A model generated the notes under the pieces. The model was not told the origin of the DNA, did not search any database, and was given only the letters and a program-made list of their open reading frames with translations. Position numbers and translations under genes: made by a program. Shown piece after piece: positions 9,514 through 21,802 of a stretch of 33,958 nucleotides of DNA. Position 1 is the first letter of the stretch, and each line of letters opens with the position of its first letter. This DNA comes from Tepidisphaeraceae bacterium. Its GTDB lineage: Bacteria; Planctomycetota; Phycisphaerae; Tepidisphaerales; Tepidisphaeraceae. The stretch lies in NCBI GenBank assembly GCA_051962375.1, contig JBQCCH010000078.1, forward strand, positions 1-33,958. The letters run 5' to 3'.

Positions 9514-10371
9514 ATGATTTTTCTCGAAACCCCGGCCGATTTGCTTGAACCTGGCGAGAGGCGGGGTCGTTCTTCTTGGGAGCGCGATGTGAGCAGCGGT
9601 GACAGTCTTAGCGCTAAGGCCTATCGCCACCTCCATAACGAGATTATGAGCGGCCGGATCGGCGTAGGGGATGTCATCTCCGAACTTGCCATCGCTAAGT
9701 CGCTCGGCATCAGTCGCACGCCCGTGGGCGAAGCAGTGCGGTTGTTGGCCCGCGAGGGGCTGGTGCATCAGGTGCCGCGCTACGGCACGGTGGTACGCCG
9801 CCTGGAACGGGCGGACTTGGAAGAGCATTACGAGCTGCGCGAAGCCTTGGAAAGCTATGCCACTGCGCAGGCGGCGCGGCGGGCCTCGCCGACGGATGTC
9901 AACCGGATTCGCGAACTCTGCGAGGCGACCGGCCGATGGCTGAATGAAAGGGCTCCTGGCGATCACCAGACGCTCAGCGAAACCGAACTGCGCCAGTTTC
10001 TGGCGGCAGACATGGCATTTCACCTTGCTATTGTGCAGGCGGCGGGCAATCGCCAGATCATGAACGCCGTTCACGCCTCGCGTTCGATCCTGCGTATCTT
10101 CGCGCTACGACGTCAGCAGCATGACCGCGACTTGGTTTTGGACGCTTACCAGCAGCACTGCTCGATTGCCAATGCGATCGCCAAGGGGGATGGTCAGACG
10201 GCGTCAACGCTGATGCTTCAGCACATCCGTCAAAGCAAGCAGTCGACACTGGAATGGTATGACCTTGAGGCTCGCCGCGGCCAGATCGGCATGCCCGGCC
10301 TGCCCGCGGACGTGCAGCATGAACTGAACGAGGTCGAGGAACTCCTAACCAAAATCAGCCAAACGCCCTAA
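9514..10371 (+). CDS. GntR-family transcriptional regulator, FadR/FCD subfamily
   Basis: Winged-HTH block AYRHLHNEIMSGRIGVGDVISELAIAKSLGISRTPVGEAVRLLAREGLVHQVPRYGTVV, followed by a helical FCD-like C-terminal domain (LREALESYA..FHLAIVQAAGN). GGAG lies 6 nt upstream of ATG 9514. The track start at 9490 is a TTG. Confidence 0.88.
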   Translation: MIFLETPADLLEPGERRGRSSWERDVSSGDSLSAKAYRHLHNEIMSGRIGVGDVISELAIAKSLGISRTPVGEAVRLLAREGLVHQVPRYGTVVRRLERADLEEHYELREALESYATAQAARRASPTDVNRIRELCEATGRWLNERAPGDHQTLSETELRQFLAADMAFHLAIVQAAGNRQIMNAVHASRSILRIFALRRQQHDRDLVLDAYQQHCSIANAIAKGDGQTASTLMLQHIRQSKQSTLEWYDLEARRGQIGMPGLPADVQHELNEVEELLTKISQTP

Positions 10372-10405
10372 CCGAACAGGAAGGCCAAGCCGGAAGGGCT
10401 GGCGC

Positions 10406-10430
10406 GGAATTCTGGAATTCAATGGAATCC
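10406..10430. promoter_or_regulatory. Three closely spaced GGAAT(T/C)C direct repeats between the GntR gene and the first BNR gene
   Basis: GGAATTC-T-GGAATTC-AAT-GGAATCC, 35 nt after the GntR stop. The repeats overlap the first possible ATG (10422) of the downstream gene. Confidence 0.35.
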
Positions 10431-12107
10431 TTCAACGGGCGGGCGATGCGAATGACACTCAAGGGACTGATATTCAGTGGGCTGACTCCCAAGGGGTTGA
10501 TTGGGGTATCGATAGGGGTAATTACCGGTGTGGCCGCTGCACAGACGCCCCCCGCGCCAAACTCGCCCATGCCCAAGCCCCCCGGCGCAGTCGTCTTCTA
10601 TTCTCCGCCGGTTTCGCGCATCTTCGTCGGATCACCGGGCATCGCCGTTTTACACGATGGCTCGTACCTGATGAAATGCGATGAGTTCGGTCCCGGCAGC
10701 AGCGACCAGACCGCCGCCGTCACGCCGGTGTTCCGCTCCACCGATTGCGGCGCATCCTGGAAGCCCATCGCTCGAATCAGCGGCCTTTATTGGGCGAACA
10801 TCTTTGAGCACAAAAATGCTGTCTACATGATCGGCGTGCATCACGAGTACGGCCCCCTAGTGGTGGTCAAATCCACGGACGGCGGCACGACCTGGACCAC
10901 GCCCAGGGACGCGAAGACGGGATTGATCCGTCCCGGGCGATGGCACACGGCGCCGGTGCCGGTCATAGAACACGACGGCCGGCTCTGGCGCGCCGTTGAA
11001 GACGCCCAAGGCCCCGGCGGGTGGGGTGTGATGTTCCACCCGCACTTGATGAGCATCCCCGTCGACGCCGACCTGCTTGACGCCGATCAGTGGACGATCA
11101 GCACCCCAGTTCCCCGCGACGGCGCGTGGCTCGGCGGAAAGTTCGGCGTCGTTCTCGAAGGCAACGCCGTCCTCGACCATGAAACGAACAAGGTGCTCGA
11201 CATCCTGCGCACCGATCACCCTCAACTCGCCGCCGTCGCGACGGTCAGCGCGGATGGTAAAACGCTGTCCGTCGCTCCAGCGTTCGACCAGATGCCGTTC
11301 CAGGGCGTCGATAAAAAATTCGAGATCCGTTGGGACGAAAAATCGCGTCAGTATTTTGCGCTGGCCAATCCGATCGCCCCGGCAGACATCACCGTGGGGG
11401 ATACCGGCGGCGTGCGCAACACGCTGGCGCTGTTCAGCTCGCCCGACCTGCGCCAATGGACGATGAAGTGCGTGCTGCTGCATCATCCCGACTGGAAGCA
11501 GCACGCTTTTCAATACCCGGACTGGGCGATCGACGGCGCGGACCTGCTGGTGGCGTCGCGCACGGGTTTTGACAGTCCCGGCGGGCCGCCCCCGCGCCAG
11601 CATGATGCGAACTACCTGACGTTCCACCGTTTCCATAACTTTCGTGATTTAACGATGAAGGATGGGGTGCAACTGCCGCAGCCTCCCGAGGTGCGTGAAG
11701 ATGTAGGAAGCCTGCGCATCCGCGGGGTCGGGTTCAGCGTCGGCAAACTTCGGGACGGGCTGAAGACGTTCTCGAACCGGAACTACGTTTTTGCCGACGT
11801 GCCCGCCAAATTGGACGGCGCCGCTATCACGCAAGGCGCCGGTGATTTCCGCGGATGGATCACGGTGAAAGCTCTCGCCAAGCCGGCCACGTTGTTCGTG
11901 TTTACGGCCGGGCCGCGCGAGGGGCTGGATTTGTCCTTATTTACCGAAGTGCCTGCACTGGGTTTCCACTACACCGACGGGGGCCGTTCGCGGGTCAGCG
12001 TCTTCAAGCGCGAATTGTCGGCGGGTGAAACCGTCACCCTGCCCGAAGGAAACTGGGCCGGCGTCCACGTGCTCGTGCCGCCGGCGAAGTCCGAGCCTCG
12101 TTCATAG
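10422..12107 (+). CDS. Secreted BNR/Asp-box beta-propeller (sialidase-superfamily hydrolase-like) with extra ~140-aa C-terminal beta-rich module
   Basis: Asp-boxes STDCGASW and STDGGTTW. Hydrophobic signal-like N-terminus (LIGVSIGVITGVAAAQ). Clear paralogy to 17526..18818 (FVGSPGIAVLHDGSYL / YVGSPALAVLPDGTYI; HTAPVPV / HTAPTPV; ANYLTFHRF / ANYLTFHRI). The true start could be ATG 10446 or 10452. Confidence 0.8.
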   Translation: MESFNGRAMRMTLKGLIFSGLTPKGLIGVSIGVITGVAAAQTPPAPNSPMPKPPGAVVFYSPPVSRIFVGSPGIAVLHDGSYLMKCDEFGPGSSDQTAAVTPVFRSTDCGASWKPIARISGLYWANIFEHKNAVYMIGVHHEYGPLVVVKSTDGGTTWTTPRDAKTGLIRPGRWHTAPVPVIEHDGRLWRAVEDAQGPGGWGVMFHPHLMSIPVDADLLDADQWTISTPVPRDGAWLGGKFGVVLEGNAVLDHETNKVLDILRTDHPQLAAVATVSADGKTLSVAPAFDQMPFQGVDKKFEIRWDEKSRQYFALANPIAPADITVGDTGGVRNTLALFSSPDLRQWTMKCVLLHHPDWKQHAFQYPDWAIDGADLLVASRTGFDSPGGPPPRQHDANYLTFHRFHNFRDLTMKDGVQLPQPPEVREDVGSLRIRGVGFSVGKLRDGLKTFSNRNYVFADVPAKLDGAAITQGAGDFRGWITVKALAKPATLFVFTAGPREGLDLSLFTEVPALGFHYTDGGRSRVSVFKRELSAGETVTLPEGNWAGVHVLVPPAKSEPRS

Positions 12108-12130
12108 CGCAATTCGAAAGAAAGTTGTAT

Positions 12131-13108
12131 ATGCAAATGCGAATCCGATCGACGTCTAAGTTGCGGGGGATCATTCCTCCCCTGGTGACGCCCCTGCTCG
12201 AAGATGGGACGCTCGATGAAGCGGGCCTGTGCCGCGTGGTTGAGCGAGCCGTCGAGGGGGGGGTACACGGGTTGTTCGTGCTCGGCACCACGGCCGAGTG
12301 GGCATCGCTCGATGACGCCACGCGCCTGCGCGTTCTCGAACTGTGCGCCACCACGACCGCCGGACGCGTGCCGCTGTATCTGCACGTGACCGATACCCGA
12401 TTCAGTGCCTCGCTCGCCTTGGCCCGTGCCGGCGCGGAAGTGGGCGTGGCCGCCATCGTCGCGGCGGCGCCGTATTATTTGCCGCTTCGACAATCCGAGC
12501 TGATCGGCTACATCGAGCGCTTTCTCGATGCCCAGGATTTGCCGATCGTTCTCTACAACATCCCGCAATTCATCAAGACCTCCTATGAGCCGGAGACGGT
12601 GCGGCAACTGATCCAAAATCCGCGCGTCATCGGCATCAAGGACAGCAGCGGCGATTTGGCGTATCAACGGGAGATCATCGACCTGACGGCGCCGCGCCCC
12701 GATTTTTCCGTGCTCTGCGGCGACGAGCGCTACATGCGCGAAATGCTCGCCTACGGAGCGCACGGATGCGTCGGCGGCGGGGGAAACCTGCTGCCGCGAT
12801 TGCTCGTGTCGCTATATCAATCCATCCTGGCCAACGATGCGGCGCAGACCGAGCAATTGCAGCATCAATTGCAGCGGCTCTCGGTTCTGTACGAGGCCCC
12901 GACCGTGGCGGCGGGAATTCGCAACGTGAAGTCGGCCCTGCATCAAGTGGGCATCATCGCCACCGACCAGATGTGCGCGCCGTATGGCGCGGCATCGGAT
13001 GACCCAGCGGCGGTTCGGCGCGTGCTACAGAGCGTGGGGCTACTCGAGGGCGAGGCGCCGCGACCCGCGAACGGCAGGCATCACGCGGCAATTTCCTCGG
13101 CGAGGTGA
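12131..13108 (+). CDS. DapA/NanA-family class I (Schiff-base) aldolase/lyase; specificity not assignable
   Basis: Motifs seen are GIIPPLVTPL, VLGTTAEW (GTTGE-like), VLYNIPQF (the YN(I/V)P tyrosine motif) and IGIKDSSGD (Schiff-base lysine context). No signal peptide. The track start at 12125 is TTG; ATGs occur at 12131 and 12137. Confidence 0.85.
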   Translation: MQMRIRSTSKLRGIIPPLVTPLLEDGTLDEAGLCRVVERAVEGGVHGLFVLGTTAEWASLDDATRLRVLELCATTTAGRVPLYLHVTDTRFSASLALARAGAEVGVAAIVAAAPYYLPLRQSELIGYIERFLDAQDLPIVLYNIPQFIKTSYEPETVRQLIQNPRVIGIKDSSGDLAYQREIIDLTAPRPDFSVLCGDERYMREMLAYGAHGCVGGGGNLLPRLLVSLYQSILANDAAQTEQLQHQLQRLSVLYEAPTVAAGIRNVKSALHQVGIIATDQMCAPYGAASDDPAAVRRVLQSVGLLEGEAPRPANGRHHAAISSAR

Positions 13109-13112
13109 GGCG

Positions 13113-14528
13113 TTGCGTCGGACGATTCGACTTTGTCTCGGGAGAAGTTTCATGGCCAGTTGCTCGATGCTGCTCGCCGGCTGCGCGGCGGCATCATCCT
13201 CGACGCGCCCAGCGCAGCCGCGCGATCGACAGGTGACGTTCGGCGAGTACGGCCACATTCTCACGAACGTGAATGTCTGGTCGCCGGACAGCAAGTGGAT
13301 CGCCTACGATGTCCGCTCCGATCCCGGCGGCGACCGATTCGACGGCGACCGGATCGAGCGCGTGAACGTCGAGACGGGCGTGGTGCAAGTCCTGTACCGC
13401 GCGTCGGCGAACGCCAAGGTGGGCGTTGTCACCTGTTCGCCGACCAGTGAAAAAGTCGTCTTCATTGAAGGCCCGAAGCATCCGACACCCGACTGGTCTT
13501 ACGCCGCCAATCATCGCCAGGGCGTGATTGTCGATGCGGCGCGGCCCGGAATCGAGACCAACTTGGACGCCCGCGATCTGACCGCCCCCTTTACGCCCGG
13601 CGCGCTGCGCGGCGGTACGCATGTACACGTGTTCAGCCCCGATGGCCGATGGGTGCGCTTCACCTACGAAGACGCGATCCTCCCGAGCGCCGGCGCGATT
13701 CCGGCCGACAGCGACGTGAACGCCCGCAACATCGGCGTCAGCGTGCCGGCCGGACCAGTGCGGGTAGCCGGCGACAACCCGCACAATCACGATGGCGATT
13801 TTTTCAGCGTTCTGGTCACGCACACCGTTCGCGATCCGAAGCCGGGATCGGACGAGATTTCGCGTGCCTGCGAAGAGGGGTGGGTGGGCGTGAACGGATA
13901 CGTGCGGCCGGATGGAACGCGCCAAAAGCGGGCGATCGCGTTTCAGGGGTCGGTAAAGACAGTCCAGGGCGAGTCGATTGCCGAGGTCTTCATCGTCGAT
14001 CTGCCGGACGACCTGACACGGCCCGGCGACGGCCCGCTCGCGGGCACGGCCACCCGCCTCCCCGCACCCCCTGCCGGCGTCATTCAGCGCCGCCTGACCT
14101 ATACCGCGGACCGAAAATATCCCGGCATCCAAGGCCCGCGCCACTGGCTCCAGGCCTCGCCGGATGGTTCGCGCATCGCGTTCCTGATGAAAGACGACAC
14201 CGGCATCATCCAACTCTGGACGATTTCGTCCAATGGTGGCAAGCCGACGCAGGTTACGCATGACCCGTGGAGCATCGCGTCAGCGTTCACCTGGAATCCC
14301 AAGGAATGGGCTGTCGCATATATCGCGGACAAGAGCGTGTTCACGGTGGATATGCGAACTGGCGTTAGTCGCCGACTAACCGAGCCAACAAACGATGCCG
14401 ATGCGCCGCGCCCGCTCGCCTGCGTTTATTCGCCTGACGGCCGGAAAATCGCTTATCTGCGGCCGGTTCAGTTGAACGGAAAAACTTGGAACCAGGTTTA
14501 TGTCGTCGCAACACCTGACAAAAATTGA
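13113..14528 (+). CDS. YidR/DUF3748-like TolB-type beta-propeller protein with lipoprotein signal peptide
   Basis: A TTG 13113 start gives MRRTIRLCLGRSFMASCSMLLAGCAAAS (lipobox LLAGC). The alternative ATG 13152 is preceded by GGAGAAG. PD40-like repeats are SPDSKWIAYDV, FSPDGRWVRFTYED, ASPDGSRIAFLMKD and YSPDGRKIAYLRP. The N-terminal HILTNVNVWSPDSKWIAYDVR resembles the start of E. coli YidR as I recall it. The ORF-track extension to 12984 overlaps the upstream gene and is unlikely. Confidence 0.8.
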   Translation: MRRTIRLCLGRSFMASCSMLLAGCAAASSSTRPAQPRDRQVTFGEYGHILTNVNVWSPDSKWIAYDVRSDPGGDRFDGDRIERVNVETGVVQVLYRASANAKVGVVTCSPTSEKVVFIEGPKHPTPDWSYAANHRQGVIVDAARPGIETNLDARDLTAPFTPGALRGGTHVHVFSPDGRWVRFTYEDAILPSAGAIPADSDVNARNIGVSVPAGPVRVAGDNPHNHDGDFFSVLVTHTVRDPKPGSDEISRACEEGWVGVNGYVRPDGTRQKRAIAFQGSVKTVQGESIAEVFIVDLPDDLTRPGDGPLAGTATRLPAPPAGVIQRRLTYTADRKYPGIQGPRHWLQASPDGSRIAFLMKDDTGIIQLWTISSNGGKPTQVTHDPWSIASAFTWNPKEWAVAYIADKSVFTVDMRTGVSRRLTEPTNDADAPRPLACVYSPDGRKIAYLRPVQLNGKTWNQVYVVATPDKN

Positions 14529-14582: not shown

Positions 14583-14600
14583 CTTGTGGAATTCCACAAG
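14583..14600. promoter_or_regulatory. Perfect 18-bp palindrome, candidate operator, 40 nt upstream of the PATR gene start
   Basis: CTTGTGGAATTCCACAAG equals its own reverse complement. It lies in the 111-nt gap between the DUF3748 stop (14528) and ATG 14640. Its TGGAAT half-site core is shared with the repeats at 10406..10430. Confidence 0.5.
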
Positions 14601-14639: not shown

Positions 14640-17429
14640 ATGAATTCGGATCTTAACGGCGGCTCTACCTCTTCTGGTCATTCGAGCCAATGCGCTCGTC
14701 TTCCCTTGATCGTTGCGGCATGCGTAGCGCTTGTTTCCTCCCAAGCCTTTAGTAGCGACTGGCAACCGGCGACGGGCGGCGCGTGGGACACGCCGACCAA
14801 CTGGGATACCAATCCGACTATCCCCGACGGCGTTGGCGCGACTGCCGACTTTAGCCAAGTGGACCTCACCGGCGATGCCACCATCGCCCTGAACGGCAGC
14901 CGCACGGTCGGCATGCTGAACTTCGGCGACACCGATCCCTCCACGGCCGGCGGATGGCTCCTCAGCGATGCAACCCAGAAAACCCTAACGCTCGCAACCA
15001 GCAGCGGCCCGGCTAACATCAATGTGGGCAACCTCGGCACGGGCAAAGCCGTTACGATCGCATCGCTGCTCAAGGTCGACGCCGCCCAGGTCGTCACCAA
15101 GACGGGCAACGGCACCTTGATCTTCACCAACGTCGGCAACGCCTCGGCGAGCGCCTTTGCCGGCATTCTGGAGATTCAGGCGGGCGTGTTCCAGGTCGGC
15201 AGCACCGCGGCGCTGCCCAATTTCGATCCCAACACCGTCCGCATCAACGGCGGGACGATGCGCTTCAGCGCGTCGGCGAACACCGGCCGCGTCTTCTCGC
15301 TCGGGCAGAACGGCGGCACCCTCTCGATCGCGGCCGCCACGAATTTCAGCGGCACTGGCGCCATGCCGCTGGTCGGCAGCGGGGCACGCACGTTCACCAT
15401 CAACACCGAGACGGCCGGCGCCTATACGTTCGCCAACCTGATCGGCGACGGCACCGGCGGGGTGACCAGTCTCGTCAAGGCCGGCCCCGGCGCGCTCACC
15501 CTCGGCACGGCGAACACCTTCACCGGCACGATCGCCGTCAATGGCAGCACGCTGACCAATAACACCCTCGGCGGCACGCCCACCGGCCCGGCGGCGACGG
15601 CTACGGCCTACACCGGCGGCGGCATCACGGTCGCCAGCGGCGCGACCATGGGCGTCACCCGCGGACTGTCCCTCAACTTCGCCGGCTCCATCAGCGGCGC
15701 GGGCGGCCTGAACGTCAAGATCACCAACGATGGCAACGTGTCGCTTGGCAACGCCACCTTCGCCGGCACGACCACCATCCAACGCGGCACGTACAACCTG
15801 AGCAATAACTCGGCCACGTCCAATTACGTCTTGGGTGATAGCGTCGTGTCGGAATATGGCATCATCAATCTCGACAACGGCAACTTCACCGCCCCGCTGG
15901 GTACGACTGGCGGCGGGGTTACGTGGACTGGCTCGGGCGGCTTCTCCAACCCCAACGCCGGCACGCGCGTGGTGGCCCTCGGCGGCACCGCGTCGCCGAC
16001 ACCGCTGCAATTGAACGTCGGCGGATTCGTCGCCGGCAACAATTCCCCTGGCACGCCGGCGACGGACTTTCGCCTAAAACTTGGCGATGTCGGCGCTACC
16101 GCATTGGGCACCGTCGATTTCCAGAACGCCATCGACCTCAACAACCGCGAACTCCGCGTAACCGTCGACGGCCTGGCCCAGGCGCCTGGCATTCTCAGCG
16201 GCAACATCACGGGCACAGGTCGAGCCGCCGGGGCGCTCGCCAAATTCGGAAATGCCAGTCTTATTCTGAGCGGCAACAATACTTATACGGGCATCACCTC
16301 GATCGTCGCCGGCAATGCACCGACGTTCTCTTCGGCGATCATTCTCGGCTCGGCTGGGGCATTCAGCCCGAATTCGAACATCCAACTCAACGGCGGCACC
16401 GGCGGCACGGCCGGCGGCGTGCTCGGCCTGGGCTTCGCGGATGGTAACTTCACCCTCGGCACCGGCGGCGGGCAGGTTGGTTTCACCGCCAACAATTCCG
16501 GCGGCTTTGCCGCTTATGGCGCCGACCGCACGGTTACACTGAACAGCAACGCGCTGCTGACGTGGGGCAGTACCGCCAGCTTCATTACGAGCGGGCAGAA
16601 TCTCATTCTGGCCTTGCAAAATGCCGATTCCCGGCTCACGCTTTCAAACGACATTAACCTGAATGGCGCGGCCCGTACGGTCGTCGTTAACCAAGGCTCC
16701 GCGGCTGTTGATGCCCGGCTCTCCGGTCAACTGACCGGCACCGGCAGCAGCGGCTTGACGAAGTCCGGCCTCGGCACGCTAGAGTTGACCAACACCGCCA
16801 ACAACTACGCCGGCGTCACCAACGTCACGGCCGGCACGTTGCTGGTCAACGGCTCGACCGGCGCCGGCAAAACGACCGTTTCGGCCGGTGCTACCCTCGG
16901 CGGCAGCGGCACGATTTCGGGCGATCTGGCGGTCATCGGCGGCACGCTCGCGCCCGGCAACAGCCCCGCCTCGCTCGAAATTGGCGGCAACCTGACGCTC
17001 GATGCGGCTTCCACCACCGCGATCGAACTTGCCGGCACCGCTTTTTCCTTGAACGGCACGGAGCAGTATGACCGCCTCAAGCTCACCAGCGCTTCCGGCA
17101 GCCACACGATCGCCGGCACGCTGGCGGTCGACCTTTTGAACGGATTCACGCTCACTGACAACGAAGCCTTCGGCATCCTGCAACTCGATGATGCGGCCCT
17201 TCGCTCCGGCACGTTCACCGGGCTGACCACCGATGGCGCGCTGGTCGGCACCTTCGGCGGGCAGAACCTGTTCATCACCTACTCCGGCAGCTTCGGCGAT
17301 GCCGGCGCCATCTCTACGACCGGCGGCAACGACGTCGTGCTTTACACGCAGCAAACGCCCGAACCGGCGGCCCTCGGGCTGCTCGGCGGCGCGGCGATGA
17401 TGCTCGTGCGCCGTCGTCGCCGCGTTTGA
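14640..17429 (+). CDS. PATR (autotransporter-associated beta-strand repeat) surface protein with C-terminal PEP-CTERM sorting signal; no beta-barrel translocator
   Basis: GGAGGA lies 7 nt upstream of ATG 14640. Signal-like ARLPLIVAACVALVSSQAFS. The N-terminal W..GGAWDTPTNWD..P..GATADF is a typical PATR-protein opening. Long Gly/Thr/Asn-rich repeats follow (..GNGTLIFTN.., ..GPGALTLGTANTFTG.., ..GLGTLELTNTANNYAG..VNG). The tail is TPEPAALGLLGGAAMMLVRRRRRV (PEP motif, TM helix, Arg cluster). Confidence 0.88.
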   Translation: MNSDLNGGSTSSGHSSQCARLPLIVAACVALVSSQAFSSDWQPATGGAWDTPTNWDTNPTIPDGVGATADFSQVDLTGDATIALNGSRTVGMLNFGDTDPSTAGGWLLSDATQKTLTLATSSGPANINVGNLGTGKAVTIASLLKVDAAQVVTKTGNGTLIFTNVGNASASAFAGILEIQAGVFQVGSTAALPNFDPNTVRINGGTMRFSASANTGRVFSLGQNGGTLSIAAATNFSGTGAMPLVGSGARTFTINTETAGAYTFANLIGDGTGGVTSLVKAGPGALTLGTANTFTGTIAVNGSTLTNNTLGGTPTGPAATATAYTGGGITVASGATMGVTRGLSLNFAGSISGAGGLNVKITNDGNVSLGNATFAGTTTIQRGTYNLSNNSATSNYVLGDSVVSEYGIINLDNGNFTAPLGTTGGGVTWTGSGGFSNPNAGTRVVALGGTASPTPLQLNVGGFVAGNNSPGTPATDFRLKLGDVGATALGTVDFQNAIDLNNRELRVTVDGLAQAPGILSGNITGTGRAAGALAKFGNASLILSGNNTYTGITSIVAGNAPTFSSAIILGSAGAFSPNSNIQLNGGTGGTAGGVLGLGFADGNFTLGTGGGQVGFTANNSGGFAAYGADRTVTLNSNALLTWGSTASFITSGQNLILALQNADSRLTLSNDINLNGAARTVVVNQGSAAVDARLSGQLTGTGSSGLTKSGLGTLELTNTANNYAGVTNVTAGTLLVNGSTGAGKTTVSAGATLGGSGTISGDLAVIGGTLAPGNSPASLEIGGNLTLDAASTTAIELAGTAFSLNGTEQYDRLKLTSASGSHTIAGTLAVDLLNGFTLTDNEAFGILQLDDAALRSGTFTGLTTDGALVGTFGGQNLFITYSGSFGDAGAISTTGGNDVVLYTQQTPEPAALGLLGGAAMMLVRRRRRV

Positions 17430-17525: not shown

Positions 17526-18818
17526 ATGCTTGCAACCGCGCGGCGCATCATCGCGGCAGTGGCGATCACCGCTTATGCCGGGGCGTTTTGTTCCGCGGCG
17601 GCTTATTCGTCCGTACCCGGCAGCGTGATCGATCACCTGCCGGCCGGCGGTGGCGTGTATGTCGGATCGCCGGCGCTGGCGGTCTTGCCGGATGGCACCT
17701 ACATCGCCTCGCACGATCTGTTCGGCCCATCCTCGACCGCGCCGAGCGTGGGCGTGACGAAGCTGTTTCGCTCGATTGATCGTGGCGTCACCTGGTCGCC
17801 GCTTTCCACGATCAGCGGGCAGCAGTGGTCGAACCTGTTCACGCAGGGCAACGCGCTCTACCTGATGGGCACGAGCAAGGACTACGGCCGTGTGACGATT
17901 CGCAAATCGATTGACGGCGGCGCGACCTGGACCACGCCCAGCGACACCACCAACGGCTATTTGAGCTTGGGTGAAACACACCACACCGCGCCGACGCCGG
18001 TGGTCATCGCCGACGGGCGCATTTGGCGGTCGATGGAAGACACCGGCGCCGGAGGCGGTTGGCCGGCGCAGTTTCGCACCTTCGTCATGTCGGCACCGAT
18101 CGGCAGCGATCTGCTCAACAAGGGCAACTGGCGCTACACCGGCGACATGCCCGGCACGGCCAAGCTCAGCAGCAGCAAAGGCTGGCTGCCCAACAACGCC
18201 TTCAACGGCTGGCTCGAAGGCAACATGGTGCGCACGGCGGGGGGCGAGCTGGTGAACGTGTTGCGTGTCGATGTGCCCGCCGGTGCGGCCCAGAAGGGGG
18301 CGATCGTGCATGTCAATCCGGCGGACAACGGCCTGGCGTTCGATCCCGCCGTCGATATCGTGAACCTGCCCGGCGGGTCGTCGAAGTTCACGATCCGTTA
18401 TGACCCGGCCACCCAAAAATACTGGACGCTCAGCGACACCGTCACGGTGGCAAACAACGTAGCCGGTGTGCCGCCGGGATCGATTCGCGATGTCGTCTCG
18501 CTCGTCTCTTCAACCGATCTGACGAATTGGACGATCACCCGAACGGTGCTAAGCGATACGACTGATGCTGGCCACATCGGCTTTCAATACCTGGATTGGC
18601 AATTCGACGGGGCCGATATCGTGGCCGTATCGCGTACGGCTTATCCTGACGGCGTAGGCGGGGCCAACAGTTATCACAACGCAAATTATCTGACGTTTCA
18701 TCGGATCGTCGATTACGCCGCCGTTCCAGAACCTGCGACGATCGCTCCACTCCTGGGGATGTTGTGGTTATCCCAAATGCGGTGGAAACTTCAGCGTCGG
18801 GCAGGGCGGATTGCGTAA
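17526..18818 (+). CDS. BNR/Asp-box beta-propeller (sialidase-superfamily hydrolase-like) with C-terminal PEP-CTERM sorting signal
   Basis: Asp-boxes SIDRGVTW and SIDGGATW. Signal-like MLATARRIIAAVAITAYAGAFCSAAA. The C-terminus is VPEPATIAPLLGMLWLSQMRWKLQRRAGR (PEP motif, hydrophobic helix, basic tail). Paralogue of 10422..12107. Confidence 0.82.
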   Translation: MLATARRIIAAVAITAYAGAFCSAAAYSSVPGSVIDHLPAGGGVYVGSPALAVLPDGTYIASHDLFGPSSTAPSVGVTKLFRSIDRGVTWSPLSTISGQQWSNLFTQGNALYLMGTSKDYGRVTIRKSIDGGATWTTPSDTTNGYLSLGETHHTAPTPVVIADGRIWRSMEDTGAGGGWPAQFRTFVMSAPIGSDLLNKGNWRYTGDMPGTAKLSSSKGWLPNNAFNGWLEGNMVRTAGGELVNVLRVDVPAGAAQKGAIVHVNPADNGLAFDPAVDIVNLPGGSSKFTIRYDPATQKYWTLSDTVTVANNVAGVPPGSIRDVVSLVSSTDLTNWTITRTVLSDTTDAGHIGFQYLDWQFDGADIVAVSRTAYPDGVGGANSYHNANYLTFHRIVDYAAVPEPATIAPLLGMLWLSQMRWKLQRRAGRIA

Positions 18819-18832: not shown

Positions 18833-20191
18833 ATGAACGAATTAAACACCATCGTTCGCAATCGGCCCACGATTGGCCCCCGGTATAAATGGGCCATCGT
18901 TGCGATGCTCTGGTTTGTCTGCTTCTTTAACTACGCCGACAGAATGGCGATCTATTCAGTCTTTCCGTTGCTGAAAAAAGAGATGCTGCTTTCGGATGTG
19001 CAGTTGGGGATCCTCGGCAGCGAGTTCATGTGGGTTTACGCGGCGATGTCGCCGATCGCAGGCTGGGTCGGCGATCGCGTCAGCCGTAAGACGTTGATCG
19101 TCGGTGGCCTGATTTTCTGGTCGGTCATCACACTCGCGACCGCGCTTTCGACCGATTACCTACATCTGGTTATTTTCCGAGCGGCCGAAGGACTAGGCGA
19201 GGCATTCTACTTTCCCGCGGCGATGTCGCTGGTGAGTGATTACCACGGCCGCGCGACGCGCTCTAAGGCGATGGCGATCTGTCAATCGAGCGTTTACGCC
19301 GGCACGATCGCCGGCGGAACGGTCGCCGGATTTCTCGCCGAGCAGCACGGATGGAGATCGAGCTTCTATCTGTTCGGCGCGCTCGGCGTACTACTCGGCT
19401 CTGTGCTGGTCGTGCTGCTGAAAGAACCGCAGCGCGGCGAGGCCGACGCCATCGATCTGGTCGACGGCCGCGATAACCCGGGCCCGGAGCCGTTGCTCGT
19501 GGGTCACGCAATCAGCTCTGAAAGAGTGAGCATCCCCGCGACAATCGCTGCCGTGTTTGAGAATCCCATCGTATTGATTCTGGTGGCCGTTTTCATATGT
19601 GCGAATTTCGTGGCGTCGGTGTTTCTGACCTGGATGCCGTCGTTCCTGCATCGGAAGTTCGACATGAGCCTTGCCATGTCGGGCCTTAACGCGACGGGCT
19701 GGCTTCAGATCGCTTCGGCGATCGGCGTGATGTGCGGCGGCGTGCTCGGCGACGCGCTGGCCACCCGAACGACCGGCGGCCGGATGATGACGCAGGCCGT
19801 CGGCCTGTTCTTCGGCATTCCTTTTATTTTCTTCACCGGTTACACGCTCTCGACGACGGTGCTGGTGCTGGCCATGGTCGGCTTCGGTTTTTTCAAGGGC
19901 TTTTATGACGCAAACCTCTGGGCGTCGCTGTACGACGTCGTTCCCGTCAAAAATCGCGGGACCGCGCTGGGAATCATGAACGCGCTTGGTTGGGTGGGCG
20001 GTGGTATTGCACCCGTGGTGATCGCCGCGGGCGCCGAGCGGTACGGGATGAGCACTTGCCTCAGCGCGACGTCGGGCGTTTATCTTGTCGCGGCGGTGAT
20101 GATGATTATCGGCATGCAGTCATTGGCGCGGCGCGGCCTGAATCAGCCCAAGGCCATAGGCGTATTAGAACCGGAAGGATTTTTGCGCTAA
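18833..20191 (+). CDS. MFS transporter (anion:cation symporter / Spinster-like type), probable acidic-sugar permease
   Basis: ATG 18833 gives MNELNTIVRNRPTIGPRYKWAIVAMLWFVCFFNYADRMAIYSVFPLL. G..GDRVSRK is an MFS loop 2-3 motif, and the protein has multiple hydrophobic segments throughout. The ORF-track extension to 18764 overlaps the upstream gene. Confidence 0.85.
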   Translation: MNELNTIVRNRPTIGPRYKWAIVAMLWFVCFFNYADRMAIYSVFPLLKKEMLLSDVQLGILGSEFMWVYAAMSPIAGWVGDRVSRKTLIVGGLIFWSVITLATALSTDYLHLVIFRAAEGLGEAFYFPAAMSLVSDYHGRATRSKAMAICQSSVYAGTIAGGTVAGFLAEQHGWRSSFYLFGALGVLLGSVLVVLLKEPQRGEADAIDLVDGRDNPGPEPLLVGHAISSERVSIPATIAAVFENPIVLILVAVFICANFVASVFLTWMPSFLHRKFDMSLAMSGLNATGWLQIASAIGVMCGGVLGDALATRTTGGRMMTQAVGLFFGIPFIFFTGYTLSTTVLVLAMVGFGFFKGFYDANLWASLYDVVPVKNRGTALGIMNALGWVGGGIAPVVIAAGAERYGMSTCLSATSGVYLVAAVMMIIGMQSLARRGLNQPKAIGVLEPEGFLR

Positions 20192-21114
20192 TGGACGAGC
20201 TTTTTTTCCTGGCGAGCATCGTTGTCGCACTCACCATTCGCGTGCCGCGTCCGCCCTCGGCCGGCGAGACGCTCGTGGGCGATTCGTTTGACCTCGGACC
20301 TGGCGGCAAAGGGCTCAATCAGGCCCTCGCAGCGCGGCGGCAGGGGGCCGGGGTGTCGATGATTGCCGCGGTCGGTGATGACCTTCTCGCAGGCGTCGCG
20401 ATGGGAACCATAGCGACCGAGGGGCTCGATGCGCGTCTTGTTCGGAAGATGGAAGGTATCAACACAGGCGTTGGCTTCGTCACGCTCGACGCCCGCACGG
20501 CGGATAACACGATCGTCATCGATCCCGGCGCGAACTTACGTCTGACGGACGCCCATATTCAGCAATGCGCGAAGGAAATTCGGACGGCAAGAATGGTGAT
20601 CTCGCCGCTGGAACTGCCGGACGCGCCGGTGCTGGAAGCATTCCGAATCGCGAAGCGTTACGGGGTAAAAACGCTGCTGAACCCGGCGCCTGCGCGGCCG
20701 TTGCCGCCAGAACTGCTGGGGCTGACCGACCTGCTCACGCCCAATGAGACCGAAGCAAAAATGCTGCTCGGACTGTCCGGCGAAGACGACATTCCTCCGG
20801 AAATTCTCGGCCGGCGGCTGATGGCGGAATTGGGCATCGGCCAAGTCGTCATGACACTCGGTCGCCGCGGCGCGATGGTCTTCAGCAATGAAAGTGAAAT
20901 CCGAATCCCGTCCGTTTCTGTTACGGCCGTCGATCCGACAGGCGCGGGAGACTGTTTCAACGCGACACTGGCCGTCGGACTGATCGGCGGCTTATCGCTC
21001 GTCGACGCCGCCTCCAGAGCGGCCGCCGCAGGCGCATATTGTGCACAACATCTGGGCGTGATCGCCGGTCTGCCCACGGCGTTGGAACTCGATACGTTCA
21101 TTCAATCGCATTAA
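20191..21114 (+). CDS. pfkB-family sugar kinase, ribokinase-like
   Basis: ATG 20191 overlaps the MFS stop (TAATG). GPGGKGLNQALAA, DPGANL, LNPAPARPLPPELLGLTDLLTPNETEA and DPTGAGDCFNA align without gaps to E. coli RbsK blocks as I recall them (GGKGANQAVAA, LNPAPARELPDELL..ITPNETEA, AAGDTFNGA). The ORF-track extension to 19990 lies inside the MFS gene in another frame. Confidence 0.85.
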   Translation: MDELFFLASIVVALTIRVPRPPSAGETLVGDSFDLGPGGKGLNQALAARRQGAGVSMIAAVGDDLLAGVAMGTIATEGLDARLVRKMEGINTGVGFVTLDARTADNTIVIDPGANLRLTDAHIQQCAKEIRTARMVISPLELPDAPVLEAFRIAKRYGVKTLLNPAPARPLPPELLGLTDLLTPNETEAKMLLGLSGEDDIPPEILGRRLMAELGIGQVVMTLGRRGAMVFSNESEIRIPSVSVTAVDPTGAGDCFNATLAVGLIGGLSLVDAASRAAAAGAYCAQHLGVIAGLPTALELDTFIQSH

Positions 21115-21130
21115 GAACAAGGTCATACGC

Positions 21131-21802
21131 ATGAGCCCTTCATCCGCCACGCTCTGGATCGCCGGAACTATCGACGAGTGCGCCTCCGCCGCTAGCACCG
21201 GACTCACGAGCGCAATCGTGACCAACCCGACGGTCATCGCCAAGTGGTGCGCCGGCACGCGCACGCTCGAAGCAGTCTGCCAGGAAATGTTGGAGCGCGC
21301 ACCGCTTCCTCTGTTCGTGCAATTGCGCGGCCCGATGACGGCGCAGTATCTTGCCGAAGCCGCCCATTTGCGAAAGATTTCAACCCGCGTCGTTCCCAAG
21401 CTTCCCGCCACGCTTGACGGGCTGGCGGCCGTGCGTGCGCTGGCGGACCGTGGTGTGGAGAGTCTGGTGACGACCGTCTGTTCCCTGGAGCAGGCCTATC
21501 TTTGCGCGGCCGCGGGCGCGCGGTGGATTTGCCCCTATGTAGCGCGTGTGAACGACGCGGGGGGTAACGCATTCACTCTTATTCGAGATGCCGCCGAGTA
21601 TTATCGCCGTACAAATGCCGGAATTCGCATCATGCCCGCCAGTGTCCGCACGCGACTTGATGCCGAGGAGTGCCTTCGGGCGGGCGCCGACGGCGTCATC
21701 GTTTTTCACGACCTGTTTCTCACCCTCTTCGATCATCCGGTAATGATGAATTCGCTAGAGAAATTTGAGGCTGAGGATTGGAGCCGCATCTGTTTTGCAT
21801 AG
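21131..21802 (+). CDS. Transaldolase-superfamily protein, small FSA/TalC-type (fructose-6-phosphate-aldolase-like)
   Basis: ~220 aa with AIVTNPTVIA (TTNPS-like), VVPKLPATLDGLAAVRAL (Schiff-base Lys context V-K-x-P-x-T) and AAGARWICPYVARVNDAGG (matches ..APYVNRIDAQGG of E. coli FsaA). Confidence 0.8.
   Translation: MSPSSATLWIAGTIDECASAASTGLTSAIVTNPTVIAKWCAGTRTLEAVCQEMLERAPLPLFVQLRGPMTAQYLAEAAHLRKISTRVVPKLPATLDGLAAVRALADRGVESLVTTVCSLEQAYLCAAAGARWICPYVARVNDAGGNAFTLIRDAAEYYRRTNAGIRIMPASVRTRLDAEECLRAGADGVIVFHDLFLTLFDHPVMMNSLEKFEAEDWSRICFA

Follow-up and report, generated by a model that had tools for sequence, protein, structure and literature searches.

The window, a 33,958-nucleotide stretch of DNA from a Tepidisphaeraceae bacterium, carries a tightly spaced run of plus-strand genes for a GntR/FCD regulator, a sialidase-fold propeller, a pyruvate lyase, a DUF3748 protein, a PATR-repeat protein, a second propeller, an MFS permease, a pfkB kinase and an FSA-fold aldolase. 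These nine genes had been described in the initial annotation, and the open reading frame positions together with the family matches confirmed every gene, its strand, the spacing and the TAATG overlap. The intergenic gaps across the operon are 1 to 96 nt. The permease stop and the kinase start share 1 nt (TAATG), and 16 nt separate the kinase from the aldolase. The proposed start of the unit at 9514 did not hold, as co-directional genes from 4115 onward precede GntR. They encode a SASA esterase, a GH127 enzyme and a DUF1559 pilin-like protein, and they accompany the cluster in relatives as well. The conserved order in the nearest relatives (L006, L008 and L098) begins with GH43, GH127 and DUF1559, therefore the unit begins upstream of 9514. 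The features are listed below.

4115..6052, + strand: SASA-type carbohydrate esterase with an inserted GH2-N-like beta-sandwich (Pfam SASA 77.9 bits, Glyco_hydro_2_N 30.3 bits), probably a de-O-acetylase of the glycan
6084..8408, + strand: GH127 glycoside hydrolase, beta-L-arabinofuranosidase family (Pfam GH127 catalytic domain 411.9 bits)
8504..9412, + strand: DUF1559 / N-methyl pseudopilin-like protein (Pfam SBP_bac_10 35.4 bits, N_methyl)
9490/9514-10371, + strand: GntR/FCD transcription regulator (Pfam GntR 51.6 bits, FCD 74.6 bits), presumed repressor of the operon
10422..12107, + strand: propeller 1, secreted six-bladed sialidase-fold propeller (BNR_2 27.3 bits, below the 31.4 cut-off)
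12125..13108, + strand: cytoplasmic class I (Schiff-base) pyruvate lyase of the DHDPS/NAL superfamily (DHDPS 192.7 bits), candidate keto-deoxy (ulosonic) acid aldolase
~13152..14528, + strand: DUF3748 beta-propeller, YidR orthologue and hub protein of the module (DUF3748 162.8 bits, plus PD40)
14586..17429, + strand: PATR-repeat surface protein with a PEP-CTERM anchor (four PATR repeats, 49.1 bits; TIGR02595 22.4, above 16)
17526..18818, + strand: propeller 2, paralogue of propeller 1 with a signal peptide (Asp-box match only)
18833..20191, + strand: MFS permease of the anion:cation symporter type (MFS_1 212.6 bits), presumed importer of the acidic sugar
20191..21114, + strand: pfkB kinase of a distinct ribokinase-like clade (PfkB 177 bits)
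21131..21802, + strand: FSA/TalC-fold class I aldolase without Asp6 (TAL_FSA 83.5 bits)
25190-26104, - strand: AraC regulator (Pfam HTH_18, AraC_binding), divergent from the isomerase gene
26131-27645, + strand: AraA/FucI-superfamily isomerase (Pfam Arabinose_Iso_C 35.7 bits)
28588..29682, - strand: GH43-like hydrolase (Pfam GH43 40.8 bits)

The gene arrangement is not due to chance; the order recurs in four independent metagenomic contigs with 62-85% protein identity. An order of GH43, GH127, DUF1559/N_methyl, GntR, propeller, lyase, DUF3748, PATR and MFS is common to L006, L008 and L098, and variants are found in L001, L002 and L100. The regulator is 76-77% identical to its counterparts in L006 and L008, where SASA esterases (56% identical) also adjoin the cluster. 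GH127 is 70% identical and lies at the equivalent position in L006, L008 and L098, and is present in L001 too; it scores only 93.6 bits with the aceric-acid-hydrolase model (cut-off 950). The N_methyl gene is at the equivalent position in these four loci. The GH43 of the window is displaced by 7 kb as compared to the conserved cluster, but is 84-85% identical to the GH43 adjoining GH127 in L006 and L008; in L098, too, a GH43 lies at that position. The PATR protein has counterparts of 63-70% identity in L006 and L008, and its gene is duplicated in L098. The divergent AraC/isomerase pair (25190..27645) had no homologue among the comparison loci, and the isomerase reached 57 bits with the L-arabinose isomerase model (cut-off 622); it possibly represents a linked pentose step.

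We then examined 80 PVC genome loci anchored on DUF3748 (1.2 Mb in total), counting partners within 3 kb. Of these loci, 16 had a member of the propeller family, 17 had one of the lyase subfamily and 16 had an SSF or MFS transporter, and the same families ranked at the top in an unbiased clustering of neighbours. Adjacencies of less than 300 bp between DUF3748 and a propeller, lyase or transporter gene occur in dozens of genomes from several phyla. The nan-like skeleton noted at the outset (propeller, permease, Schiff-base lyase and GntR/FCD regulator) is recurrent; it is conserved in close relatives, and a reduced version of it is spread over Planctomycetota, Verrucomicrobiota, Kiritimatiellae and Lentisphaerae. 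The reported absence of NanK and NanE was also borne out, with no homologue of NanK, NanE, NanT or NanQ in the window or in any of the 88 comparison loci. A module partner is present in only about half of the DUF3748 loci. Some DUF3748 loci, such as L099, lie amid housekeeping genes; DUF3748 can stand alone, and L002 has the module without DUF3748 on its visible contig. Sulfatases are frequent neighbours (8-9 loci).

The DUF3748 protein is 48% identical to E. coli YidR over its full length. Its identity as a YidR/DUF3748-like protein was upheld, but its description as a lipoprotein depends on an LLAGC box that is itself weak, and a signal peptide is lacking in E. coli YidR and in about half of the homologues overall. 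The AF2 model (pLDDT 86.6) has the PL22 oligogalacturonate lyase 3pe7 as its best whole-fold match (TM 0.54/0.63), a similarity of fold with no sequence signal. In E. coli, yidR is two genes from dgoT and the 2-keto-3-deoxy-galactonate (dgo) operon, and RefSeq names YidR a galacturonate catabolism protein. It has been reported that yidR co-varies with the 2-keto-3-deoxy-galactonate operon and that growth of the yidR mutant is poor on galacturonate and on gluconate (PMC5293155). DUF3748 may serve as a NanM/NanQ-like enzyme (anomerase or ring-opening), as a lactonase or as a PL22-like lyase.

The lyase scores below the cut-offs of the dapA, nanA, KDG-aldolase and KdgD models; with the NanA models it reaches 102-119 bits against cut-offs of 281-382. 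It keeps the catalytic Lys, the Tyr and the GTTxE motif. It cannot be DapA because Arg138 of DapA is Phe, and this assignment was rejected. The lyases of the module share a single signature, with Ser at NanA position 167 and Gly at position 208 (Ser208 in NanA); they are 38-41% identical to the window lyase, as compared to 27% for E. coli NanA, DapA and YagE. The best solved relative is PDB 4XKY (209 bits, E = 8e-61), deposited as "dihydrodipicolinate synthase" and presumably from Bacteroides thetaiotaomicron. In some sources the name given to relatives of the lyase is 2-dehydro-3-deoxy-D-pentonate aldolase.

The two propellers are 37% identical (E = 2e-82). Propeller 1 has a C-terminal domain of about 140 aa (residues 421-561) with no Pfam match, and its orthologues in L002, L006 and L008 are 65-67% identical. 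Propeller 2 is 76% identical in L002 and absent from L006, L008 and L098; its C-terminal "VPEP..." tail and helix look PEP-CTERM-like by eye, but no model detected PEP-CTERM. With NCBIfam, propeller 1 had a single sub-threshold match and propeller 2 had none. The AF2 model of propeller 2 (pLDDT 91.7) has six blades, and the PDB folds ranking highest for it are GH33 sialidases and GH93 enzymes (TM ~0.55, ~14% identity), the fold being equally close to GH93 arabinanases and to GH33. Residues E231, R321, Y355, D364, R370 and H384 are invariant in the family, R321 and Y355 in 34/34 members. In an alignment with Salmonella NanH, whose sequence was verified, E231 and R247 fall on E231 and R246, and R321 and Y355 match NanH R309 and Y342 by blade topology; the hhalign probability of this alignment is only 20%, and the register is lost towards its C-terminal end. 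Several more invariant or near-invariant arginines would suit carboxylate binding. The first arginine of the sialidase triad is missing, with Gly47-Ser48-Pro49 where Arg-Ile-Pro is expected, and the acid/base Asp62 has no conserved counterpart. GH33 membership was rejected on the loss of the RIP arginine. It had been proposed that a GH93 or GH74 classification would speak against an ulosonic-acid locus; no confident assignment to either family was obtained, yet the propellers are not GH33 either.

Among NCBIfam models the permease scores best with the D-galactonate-transporter subfamily (177.6 bits against a cut-off of 395), and the sialate symporter models give 56-57 bits only. Its nearest kin by sequence are acid-sugar carriers of the DgoT type, with 23% identity to E. 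coli DgoT; it is 69-70% identical in L002 and L006. The regulator scores 50.5 bits with the NanR model (cut-off 260).

The kinase reaches 246.6 bits with the ribokinase model, below the 299.65 cut-off. It keeps K43, N46, E143 and the GAGD motif, but RbsK Asn14 is replaced by Val and Asp16 by Ala, and its identification as RbsK was rejected for the loss of these ribose-binding residues. The kinase has a "GSxxxG/AxT" motif in common with all 11 nearest cluster representatives, and the clade shows faint ketohexokinase similarity. The aldolase scores 129.2 bits with the FSA equivalog (cut-off 245.95). K85, Q59, T109, Y131 and R134 are kept, of which Gln59 and Tyr131 are FSA-type and not transaldolase-type residues, and Asp6 is replaced by Ala-Gly (LWIAGTID). 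The WIAGTIDE motif is also present in L094, the sole metagenome relative (50% identity). Because RbsK Asn14/Asp16 and FSA Asp6 are lost, the terms "RbsK-like" and "FSA-type" denote fold, not function. The initial annotation took these two enzymes as replacements for the missing nan follow-up enzymes. Neither a pfkB kinase nor an FSA-type aldolase was found in any of the 80 DUF3748-anchored loci, and in the closest complete relatives, L006 and L098, the operon ends at the permease. By this distribution the pair is a lineage-specific add-on. Synteny is limited to the core of the gene order, and the kinase and the aldolase are not part of it.

A pentose link was found in other relatives. Ribulokinase equivalogs are present in L002, L012, L024, L044 and L084 (571-627 bits, cut-off 428), and in L002 the ribulokinase adjoins the permease gene, in the position that the pfkB kinase occupies in the window. 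Four ribulokinases in ~890 ORFs compare with ~0.2 expected at one copy per genome. FucI is the L-fucose/D-arabinose isomerase. In L060 a FucI gene directly follows DUF3748, propeller and lyase (670 bits over a partial sequence; 64% identity to E. coli FucI), and L024, L026 and L033 have a FucI-superfamily isomerase, giving four FucI-type loci. AraA and AraD were not found in the 88 loci. Ribulokinase with a FucI-type isomerase but without AraA or AraD is an independent pointer to D-arabinose, the product of Kdo cleavage. These partners are as expected if the lyase releases D-arabinose, an unexpected, partial rescue of the Kdo idea. On the other side, FucI also serves L-fucose, and the frequent sulfatases suit fucoidan-like substrates. 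GH127 and GH43 suggest glycans rich in L-arabinose, so the ribulokinase could work in L-arabinose breakdown while AraA and AraD are encoded at other sites.

We put the chances at about even that the locus serves a planctomycete of the Tepidisphaeraceae type as a polysaccharide-utilisation operon, built around a PVC-conserved module that harvests and splits an acidic 2-keto-3-deoxy sugar (ulosonic acid), most likely Kdo. From the observed gene content, synteny, co-occurrence and retention of family residues we infer each substrate and reaction. The SASA esterase, GH127, GH43, the PATR/PEP-CTERM protein and one or two propellers would trim the glycan outside the cytoplasm and free the acid sugar, which the anion:cation-symporter-type permease would take up. 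The lyase, of a distinct DHDPS/NAL subfamily, would split it in the cytoplasm into pyruvate and an aldose, with DUF3748 as a constant partner and the GntR/FCD protein holding the operon repressed until the sugar is present. The most likely single substrate would be Kdo, giving pyruvate and D-arabinose. In the relatives D-arabinose would be converted to D-ribulose-5-phosphate by a FucI-type isomerase and ribulokinase. In the window organism the atypical pfkB kinase and the Asp6-less FSA-fold aldolase may handle this pentose by different chemistry, either from arabinose-5-phosphate to glycolaldehyde and GAP or from a ketose-1-phosphate to DHAP and glycolaldehyde.

The earlier interpretation fared well in its skeleton and its missing Nan enzymes, but not in making the kinase and aldolase a conserved route, in which Kdo yields pyruvate and D-arabinose, the kinase forms arabinose-5-phosphate and the aldolase releases glycolaldehyde and GAP. 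The two genes are translationally coupled to the permease (TAATG overlap, then the 16-nt gap), the aldolase has the FSA-type Gln59 and Tyr131, a pentulose kinase directly adjoins the permease in the nearest relative, L002, and the relatives point to D-arabinose. Their presence in 0/80 module loci and their absence from behind the permease of L006 and L098 make this exact route unlikely as a conserved design. Moreover, the kinase, from a separate clade with faint ketohexokinase similarity, is without the pentofuranose-binding Asn14 and Asp16, the aldolase is without Asp6, and a 1-kinase with a ketose-1-phosphate aldolase (FucK/FucA-like chemistry) fits equally well. Somewhat better placed, though still not probable, is a locus for an arabinose-rich or pectic glycan, with GH93-like exo-arabinanase propellers, a PL22-like DUF3748 acting on uronate oligosaccharides, a KDG- or keto-deoxy-pentonate-type aldolase and ribulokinase for L-arabinose. 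The conserved GH127 and GH43, the GH93 structures among the top propeller folds, the 3pe7 match, the galacturonate phenotype of the yidR mutant and the pentonate aldolase annotations are all in line with it. However, AraA and AraD are found in 0/88 loci as compared to FucI-type isomerases in four, no KduI, KduD, UxaC or sugar-acid dehydratase was found in the conserved core, and the PL22 likeness is by fold (TM 0.54) with no sequence signal. The propellers also retain several arginines together with an invariant Tyr/Glu pair, as is typical for enzymes that act on ketosidic acids.

A true sialic-acid locus for Neu5Ac or KDN, with the downstream steps encoded elsewhere, is very unlikely. Several sources do use the name "exo-alpha-sialidase" for the propeller family, NanS, NanR and NanA have their parallels in the SASA esterase, the GntR/FCD regulator and the NAL-superfamily lyase, and the SSF transporters and sulfatases of relatives would suit sulfated sialoglycans. 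Against this stand the lack of NanK, NanE, NanT and NanQ in all loci, the low NanA scores and the Ser208 to Gly change of the lyase, the missing RIP arginine, and isomerase and kinase partners of a pentose type that have no role in ManNAc or mannose metabolism. We give least weight to a generic secreted glycan-active cluster lying beside unrelated cytoplasmic enzymes without a shared pathway. Such genes are abundant in planctomycete genomes, paralogues of the propellers turn up in many unrelated settings (L004, L005) and DUF3748 stands alone in L099; the order conserved over four contigs, the sub-300-bp DUF3748 adjacencies and the coding overlap inside the operon make this account highly improbable.

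Kdo occurs in bacterial and plant cell walls. If the ulosonic-acid reading is true, the locus could encode a breakdown pathway, with genes not known to have been identified before, for an acidic keto-deoxy sugar in a soil planctomycete. To our knowledge, three enzyme families of the operon have not been characterised by anyone.

The locus resembles the E. coli nan regulon (nanR, nanATEK-yhcH/nanQ, NanS, NanM) in its GntR/FCD repressor, MFS acid-sugar importer, DHDPS/NAL lyase and SASA-family esterase. As an accessory beta-propeller acting on the free sugar, NanM parallels DUF3748, but it is of the Kelch type and unrelated to DUF3748. Unlike the nan regulon, the locus has no NanK, NanE, NanT or NanQ homologue, its lyase and regulator are far below the NanA and NanR cut-offs, its permease is DgoT-like whereas the nan importer is NanT, and its downstream enzymes are of a pentose type. 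Among solved structures the lyase is most like PDB 4XKY, which shares the subfamily signature without Arg138 (His in 4XKY) and with KDS, G-P-E-E and NGGAN.

The E. coli D-arabinose route (FucI, FucK and FucA, or FucI and D-ribulokinase) is similar to the relatives with their FucI or FucI-superfamily isomerase and ribulokinase, but the module has no FucA or FucK orthologue, and the window has the atypical pfkB kinase and FSA-fold aldolase instead. The latter two have the folds and core catalytic residues of E. coli RbsK and FsaA; they differ by Val/Ala for Asn14/Asp16 across the entire kinase clade and by Ala-Gly for Asp6, and both score below the RbsK and FSA equivalog cut-offs.

The propellers share six blades and Asp-boxes with GH33 (Salmonella NanH, PDB 2SIL) and GH93 (2W5N, 3A71). 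They differ in the low TM (~0.55) and identity (~14%), in Gly-Ser-Pro for the RIP arginine, in having no visible equivalent of the acid/base Asp, and in the extra invariant residues R168, E171, R291, D364, R370 and H384. Sialidase-like Kdo hydrolases have been described, namely KdhAB of Francisella and Helicobacter (PMC3573668) and the C-terminal domain of B. thetaiotaomicron BT1013 (PMC13501991). Together with the GH143 Dha hydrolase BT1020, they are sialidase-fold proteins that cleave 8- and 7-carbon ulosonic acids, but no sequence relationship between them and the propellers was detected. KdhA depends on a partner in the membrane and edits the LPS of the cell that makes it, and the B. thetaiotaomicron enzymes belong to a Sus-type PUL of an organism that secretes, and does not consume, Kdo. 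In RG-II breakdown the Dha hydrolase works alongside a beta-L-arabinofuranosidase; similarly, the propellers share their cluster with GH127, a family that includes beta-L-arabinofuranosidases.

The nine genes at 9490-21802 all lie on the forward strand with intergenic gaps of 1-96 nt, in a window of 62% G+C, and the families named for all nine in the initial annotation were borne out by Pfam and NCBIfam:

within 9490-21802, +, GntR and FCD regulator (Pfam/NCBIfam)
10422-12107 (propeller 1) and 17526-18818 (propeller 2), +, two Asp-box propellers, homologous to each other (37% identity, E = 2e-82)
12125-13108, +, DHDPS-family protein, here the lyase (Pfam DHDPS, 192.7 bits)
13152-14528, +, DUF3748 and PD40 protein, YidR orthologue (Pfam/NCBIfam)
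within 9490-21802, +, PATR/PEP-CTERM protein (Pfam/NCBIfam)
18833-20191, +, MFS permease, nearest to D-galactonate-type carriers (Pfam/NCBIfam)
20191-21114, +, PfkB kinase, nearest to ribokinase (Pfam/NCBIfam)
21131-21802, +, TAL_FSA protein, nearest to fructose-6-phosphate aldolase (Pfam/NCBIfam)

We classify the locus as a nan-like sugar-acid harvesting operon built from three uncharacterised families. None of the enzymes among the nine reached the curated NCBIfam equivalog cut-off of the family that it resembles best. The TAATG overlap between the stop of the permease gene and the start of the kinase gene is real and is seen in the sequence. The nine genes stand as a group but the proposed start of the locus does not: three more genes in the same direction stand ahead of the GntR gene and move the start of the block to 4115. 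They encode a SASA-type esterase, a GH127 hydrolase and a pilin-like DUF1559 protein. A promoter and terminator scan of 3700-22700 gave counts equal to the shuffled expectation, and no inverted repeats were found as a GntR operator in 9380-10460. The 50 nt that separate the GntR stop from the start of propeller 1 are filled by three tandem copies of GGAAT(T/C)C (10406-10412, 10414-10420 and 10424-10430). The NanR operator is a repeated hexamer, and these copies recall such an arrangement; they showed no clear conservation before propeller 1 in L006, L008 and L098, the contigs with the nearest relatives of the cluster. Upstream of the esterase, a divergent gene (702-3773, reverse strand) encodes a 1023-aa protein whose sole domain match is a short NPCBM. 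It has no recognisable catalytic domain and was not found in the relatives examined.

We compared the contigs that carry the nearest lyase and DUF3748 orthologues. L006, L008 and L098 share the order GH43 (reverse strand), GH127, N_methyl, GntR/FCD, propeller, lyase, DUF3748, PATR (one or two copies) and MFS. Their lyases are 62-64% identical to that of the window, and pairwise identities of the relatives' proteins to those of the window are 56-85%. The GH43-like protein is the best conserved of the set (84-85% to the L006 and L008 copies); in these two contigs GH43 abuts GH127 and is adjoined by a SASA esterase. The GH43 gene of the window lies at 28588-29682 on the reverse strand, 7 kb beyond the operon with an AraC/isomerase pair in between, a placement that points to local rearrangement. 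Propeller 2, the kinase and the aldolase are absent from L006 and L098. The L006 cluster ends with the permease, followed by an unrelated two-component system, and L098 has no further gene past the permease on the same strand. L002, with the nearest propeller 2 (76%), carries propeller 1, lyase, PEP-CTERM protein, propeller 2, FGGY kinase and MFS before the contig end. The order in L001 is GH127, GH2, further genes, GntR, N_methyl, DUF3748, three propellers, SSF transporter and lyase, and in L100 it is DUF3748, a 409-aa protein, lyase, GH2 and MFS. From these gene orders in L006, L008, L098, L002, L001 and L100, the core is syntenic, but the kinase/aldolase tail, which L006 and L098 lack, is not.

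DUF3748 has more than 4600 matches, with about 60% identity across phyla, and the window protein is 48% identical to E. coli YidR. A genome scan with DUF3748 gave 80 loci, spread over Planctomycetota, Verrucomicrobiota, Kiritimatiellae, Lentisphaerae and other groups. In a tblastn search of all window proteins against them, DUF3748 had within 3 kb a member of the propeller family in 16 loci, one of the lyase subfamily in 17 and a transporter in 16 (10 SSF and 6 MFS). At least one counted family (propeller, lyase, transporter, ribulokinase, isomerase, sulfatase or GntR) was present in 41 of the 80. Unbiased all-against-all clustering of about 890 neighbouring ORFs placed the propeller, lyase and transporter families at the top, followed by sulfatases, DUF1559 proteins, GFO/IDH/MocA oxidoreductases and FGGY kinases. 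The module often has sulfatases nearby (8-9 of 80 loci). Examples of gene order are DUF3748-propeller-SSF-lyase (L016), lyase-DUF3748-MFS (L040), DUF3748-propeller-lyase (L060) and DUF3748-FGGY-lyase (L084); in L099, DUF3748 stands among housekeeping genes without the module. Propeller and DUF3748 occur together in L062, from Planctomycetales strain ZRK34, a cultured relative. The kinase and aldolase had been put forward as the follow-up enzymes of the locus. This role is not conserved: besides their absence from L006 and L098, tblastn found no pfkB kinase or FSA-like aldolase, and no GH127 or SASA gene, in any of the 80 DUF3748-anchored loci. A link to E. coli yidJKL was rejected, since the SSF transporters of the module are 23-26% identical to YidK, and in two loci only. 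Five loci (L021, L033, L038, L040 and L043) have typical PVC content (DUF3748, DUF1559 and sulfatases) in records titled "uncultured Bifidobacteriaceae" or "Bifidobacterium", and these bins are probably mislabelled.

The window lyase is 100% identical to a protein placed by NCBI in a Tepidisphaeraceae MAG (Planctomycetota, Phycisphaerae). Authentic E. coli NanA, DapA and YagE served as references in its alignment. Its assignment as a Schiff-base lyase of the DapA/NanA family holds at the level of the superfamily but not for either equivalog. The class I features of the DHDPS/NAL superfamily are present (equivalents of K161, Y133, Y107 and T44-T45), so that the Schiff-base Lys, both Tyr and the GTTxE loop are retained. 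Arg138 of DapA is essential and binds aspartate-semialdehyde; this position is Phe in the window lyase and Leu, Met or His in other module lyases. The NanA Ser208 position is Gly. The lyase scored 158.9 against a cut-off of 206.15 with the DapA model TIGR00674, and 118.7 against 281 and 102.1 against 382 with the NanA models NF003164 and TIGR00683, respectively. Its signature is common to 15 of 15 module-associated lyases from other phyla, and module lyases are 38-41% identical to it, whereas the E. coli paralogues reach 27%. Among solved structures the nearest is 4XKY, which was deposited as a dihydrodipicolinate synthase and shares the signature (His at the Arg138 position, KDS, G-P-E-E and NGGAN). 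Because of this signature, and of His at the Arg138 position, 4XKY is probably a member of the module-lyase subfamily and not a DapA. Nothing decisive on 4XKY was found in the literature.

The propeller family is large, with 642 matches among the candidates scored, and is named "exo-alpha-sialidase" in several sources. The AF2 model of propeller 2 (pLDDT 91.7) has six four-stranded blades, with Asp-boxes (S-x-D-x-G-x-T-W) at residues 83-90, 128-135 and 329-335. These features support the placement of both propellers in the sialidase superfamily, but not in GH33. The best PDB folds are GH33 sialidases and GH93 arabinanases alike (TM about 0.55, about 14% identity), and the likeness to the GH93 entries 3a71 and 2w5n (TM 0.52-0.64, 11-13% identity) is by fold alone. 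GH93 exo-arabinanases have a catalytic Glu/Glu pair and act on alpha-1,5-arabinan. The Arg-Ile-Pro motif of sialidases supplies the first arginine of the carboxylate-binding triad. In alignment with 4fj6, 6myv and NanH, this site is Gly47-Ser48-Pro49, with Gly in 31 of 34 members. The loop aligned with the acid/base residue Asp62 of NanH, FGPxSxxxxxxxT, has no conserved acidic residue. Propeller 1 scored 27.3 bits with BNR_2, below the gathering threshold of 31.4, and propeller 2 had no BNR_2 match. PDB sequence searches with the propellers and with DUF3748 gave Asp-box or PD40 blade matches only.

For residue mapping we used the Salmonella NanH sequence, which was verified to be identical to PDB 1DIL. 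An hhalign comparison of the propeller family with NanH, at only 20% probability, pairs E231 and R247 with NanH E231 and R246. Its C-terminal third was rejected as out of register, with NanH Tyr342 paired to position 388, which is F/Y/L in the family; blade topology was therefore used for R321 and Y355, which by topology only would correspond to NanH R309 and Y342. In GH33 enzymes these NanH positions hold the second and third arginines of the triad and the Tyr/Glu nucleophile pair. All 34 members have E231, R321, Y355, D364, R370 and H384, and R168, E171, R247 (33/34) and R291 are near-invariant. The family seems to form a branch of its own within the sialidase clan, and on this inferred mapping the propellers may keep the Tyr/Glu pair together with a remodelled arginine cluster. 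Propeller 1 has in addition a C-terminal domain of about 140 aa (residues 421-561, 11682-12107) with no Pfam match. The orthologues of L006, L008 and L098, with 528-530 aa, have kept this domain, which may be a carbohydrate-binding module. In L001 one gene (13048-15033) encodes a propeller of this family fused to an FGE-sulfatase domain, which resembles formylglycine-generating enzyme.

PL22 enzymes are seven-bladed propellers that bind Mn at a His/Gln site and use a catalytic His. Among whole-fold matches to the DUF3748 AF2 model (pLDDT 86.6), the best is an oligogalacturonate lyase of PL22, 3pe7 (TM 0.54/0.63), and the rest are generic propellers of DPP4 or TolB type. An H-x-H motif (H152, H154) is invariant in DUF3748. 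By sequence profile, DUF3748 had no match to PL22 and matched PD40 blades only. In E. coli, yidR lies beside dgoT and the dgo operon and is correlated in expression with dgo genes, and a yidR mutant grows poorly on galacturonate and gluconate (PMC5293155). These E. coli data tie DUF3748 to keto-deoxy and uronic acid metabolism. A Kdo change in an E. coli metabolome study was rejected as evidence on yidR, because the sentence appears to concern yidK. A signal peptide is present in about half of the DUF3748 homologues and missing from the rest. Our guess is that DUF3748 assists as NanM or NanQ do, by anomer conversion or ring opening, a role with which this varying localisation is compatible. 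The literature searched held nothing decisive on DUF3748 function.

FucI is an L-fucose and D-arabinose isomerase, ribulokinase phosphorylates ribulose at C5, and the products of Kdo aldolase are D-arabinose and pyruvate. With 571-627 bits, the FGGY kinases of L002, L024, L044 and L084 exceed the cut-off (428) of the ribulokinase equivalog NF003154. A fifth copy was found in L012 by tblastn and ORF labelling, and three other FGGY genes, rhamnulokinase- or xylulokinase-like, were set aside. In L060 the gene directly after the lyase is FucI-like; it shares 64% identity with the E. coli enzyme and scores 670 bits across the 377 residues that precede the contig end. A divergent FucI-superfamily isomerase lies within the module of L024, L026 and L033. 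By tblastn, AraA had no match in any comparison locus, and the single class II aldolase/epimerase match in the loci was a FucA-like gene in L055. An isomerase and a ribulokinase without the AraD epimerase would suit the use of D-arabinose and not of L-arabinose. A further pairing of lyase and pentose kinase is seen in L003, where three consecutive genes (18538-21491) encode a nucleoside hydrolase (IU_nuc_hydro), a lyase from this subfamily (40% identity) and a ribokinase of canonical type, which retains the Asn and Asp of RbsK. A propeller paralogue lies 7 kb away.

The kinase of the window had been described as RbsK-like. It keeps the ATP-binding and catalytic motifs of RbsK but not the identity of a ribokinase, as Asn14 and Asp16, the ribose-binding residues of RbsK, are replaced by Val and Ala, and its score with TIGR02152 is 246.6 against a cut-off of 299.65. 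GSxxxG/AxT stands in place of GSxNxD in all 11 of the nearest 50%-cluster representatives; since these carry the same motif, the group, judged by its sequences, is a real clade and not a product of decay. The GSxxxG/AxT clade comprises the gene at 20191-21114 and representatives P0361-P0372. Domain fusions within it (tandem PfkB, DUF488 fusion) gave no functional clue. In keeping Lys85, Gln59, Thr109, Tyr131 and Arg134 of FsaA the aldolase resembles the FSA type and not the transaldolase type, but Asp6 is replaced by Ala-Gly (LWIAGTID vs. LYLDTSD) and it scored 129.2 with the FSA model TIGR00875, against a cut-off of 245.95. A metagenome scan with the aldolase found a single relative, at 859-1527 of the 2-kb contig L094, which shares WIAGTIDE. 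The two belong to an FSA-fold subfamily that has this N-terminal motif and lacks Asp6. Ahead of the L094 gene stands an unannotated ORF of 275 aa, which by sequence resembles a cupin/PMI-type sugar isomerase and has no Pfam match, DUF4867 included. A sulfoglycolysis reading of the tail was rejected, as this neighbour is without DUF4867 and plasmid-borne fsa genes, including those of Priestia, are only 31-35% identical.

Two chemistries fit the tail equally. D-arabinose would be converted to arabinose-5-P and then to glycolaldehyde and GAP, or a ketose 1-kinase would be followed by a ketose-1-phosphate aldolase, in a FucK/FucA-like manner. For the latter, loss of the acidic Asp6 would make room for the phosphate. 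The kinase clade shows faint ketohexokinase similarity, and for this reason we lean slightly to the 1-kinase/ketose-1-phosphate chemistry. Ribulokinase in L002 and the pfkB kinase in the window both adjoin the permease gene, which suggests that one kinase displaced another within the same pathway.

From their readable signal peptides and PEP-CTERM tails, the esterase, GH127, GH43, PATR protein and propellers appear to form a secreted or surface set, which would trim a complex glycan to a free acidic sugar. The acid-type permease would import this sugar, the cytoplasmic lyase would cleave it to pyruvate and an aldose, and DUF3748 would be needed at some point between release and cleavage, with GntR/FCD controlling operon expression. 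We give even odds to the postulation that the locus harvests and cleaves an ulosonic or keto-deoxy acid. Kdo occurs in virtually all Gram-negative LPS, many capsules, plant rhamnogalacturonan-II and green-algal scales; its hydrolase is EC 3.2.1.124/144 and its aldolase EC 4.1.2.23. The FucI-type isomerase and ribulokinase of the relatives fit D-arabinose, and give the Kdo idea circumstantial support that is independent of the tail of the window. It is possible, though doubtful, that propeller, DUF3748, transporter and lyase form the first genetically defined Kdo catabolic pathway. The propellers would then be a new sialidase-clan family of Kdo-releasing hydrolases, the lyase the long-orphan Kdo aldolase and DUF3748/YidR a new enzyme on keto-deoxy sugar acids. 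The D-arabinose would pass to FucI and ribulokinase in the relatives, or through a novel pfkB-kinase/FSA-fold-aldolase bypass in the window. The initial annotation had proposed the exact route from Kdo by way of D-arabinose and arabinose-5-P to glycolaldehyde and GAP. A Kdo route is plausible from the D-arabinose-type enzymes of the relatives, but its kinase/aldolase part is not conserved in the 80 loci, and we consider these exact three steps improbable.

Sialidase-like Kdo hydrolases exist (KdhAB, PMC3573668; the C-terminus of BT1013, PMC13501991). A sialidase-like Dha hydrolase works with a beta-L-arabinofuranosidase in RG-II breakdown, and this precedent makes the pairing of GH127 with propellers in the window suggestive. 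Neither a Kdo aldolase gene nor a Kdo catabolic cluster was found in the literature searched. Recent papers cite Kdo aldolase by EC number and work of 1966-1990, and a 2026 preprint describes the pathways for Kdo secreted by B. thetaiotaomicron/gut Bacteroides as unconfirmed. The locus and its PVC relatives offer a concrete and cheap test set in the lyase (with the solved homologue 4XKY), the propeller family, the DUF and the permease. Even if the sugar is not Kdo, work on this set would give a function to DUF3748/YidR, 48% identical between a planctomycete and E. coli, and would define both a large sialidase-fold family now mis-annotated as "exo-alpha-sialidase" and a DHDPS-like subfamily now mis-annotated as DapA. 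The initial annotation was right that NanK and NanE are missing, as tblastn with E. coli NanK, NanE, NanT and NanQ gave no match in the window and 88 loci. The locus is like the nan cluster in design, but none of its components qualifies as the nan counterpart.
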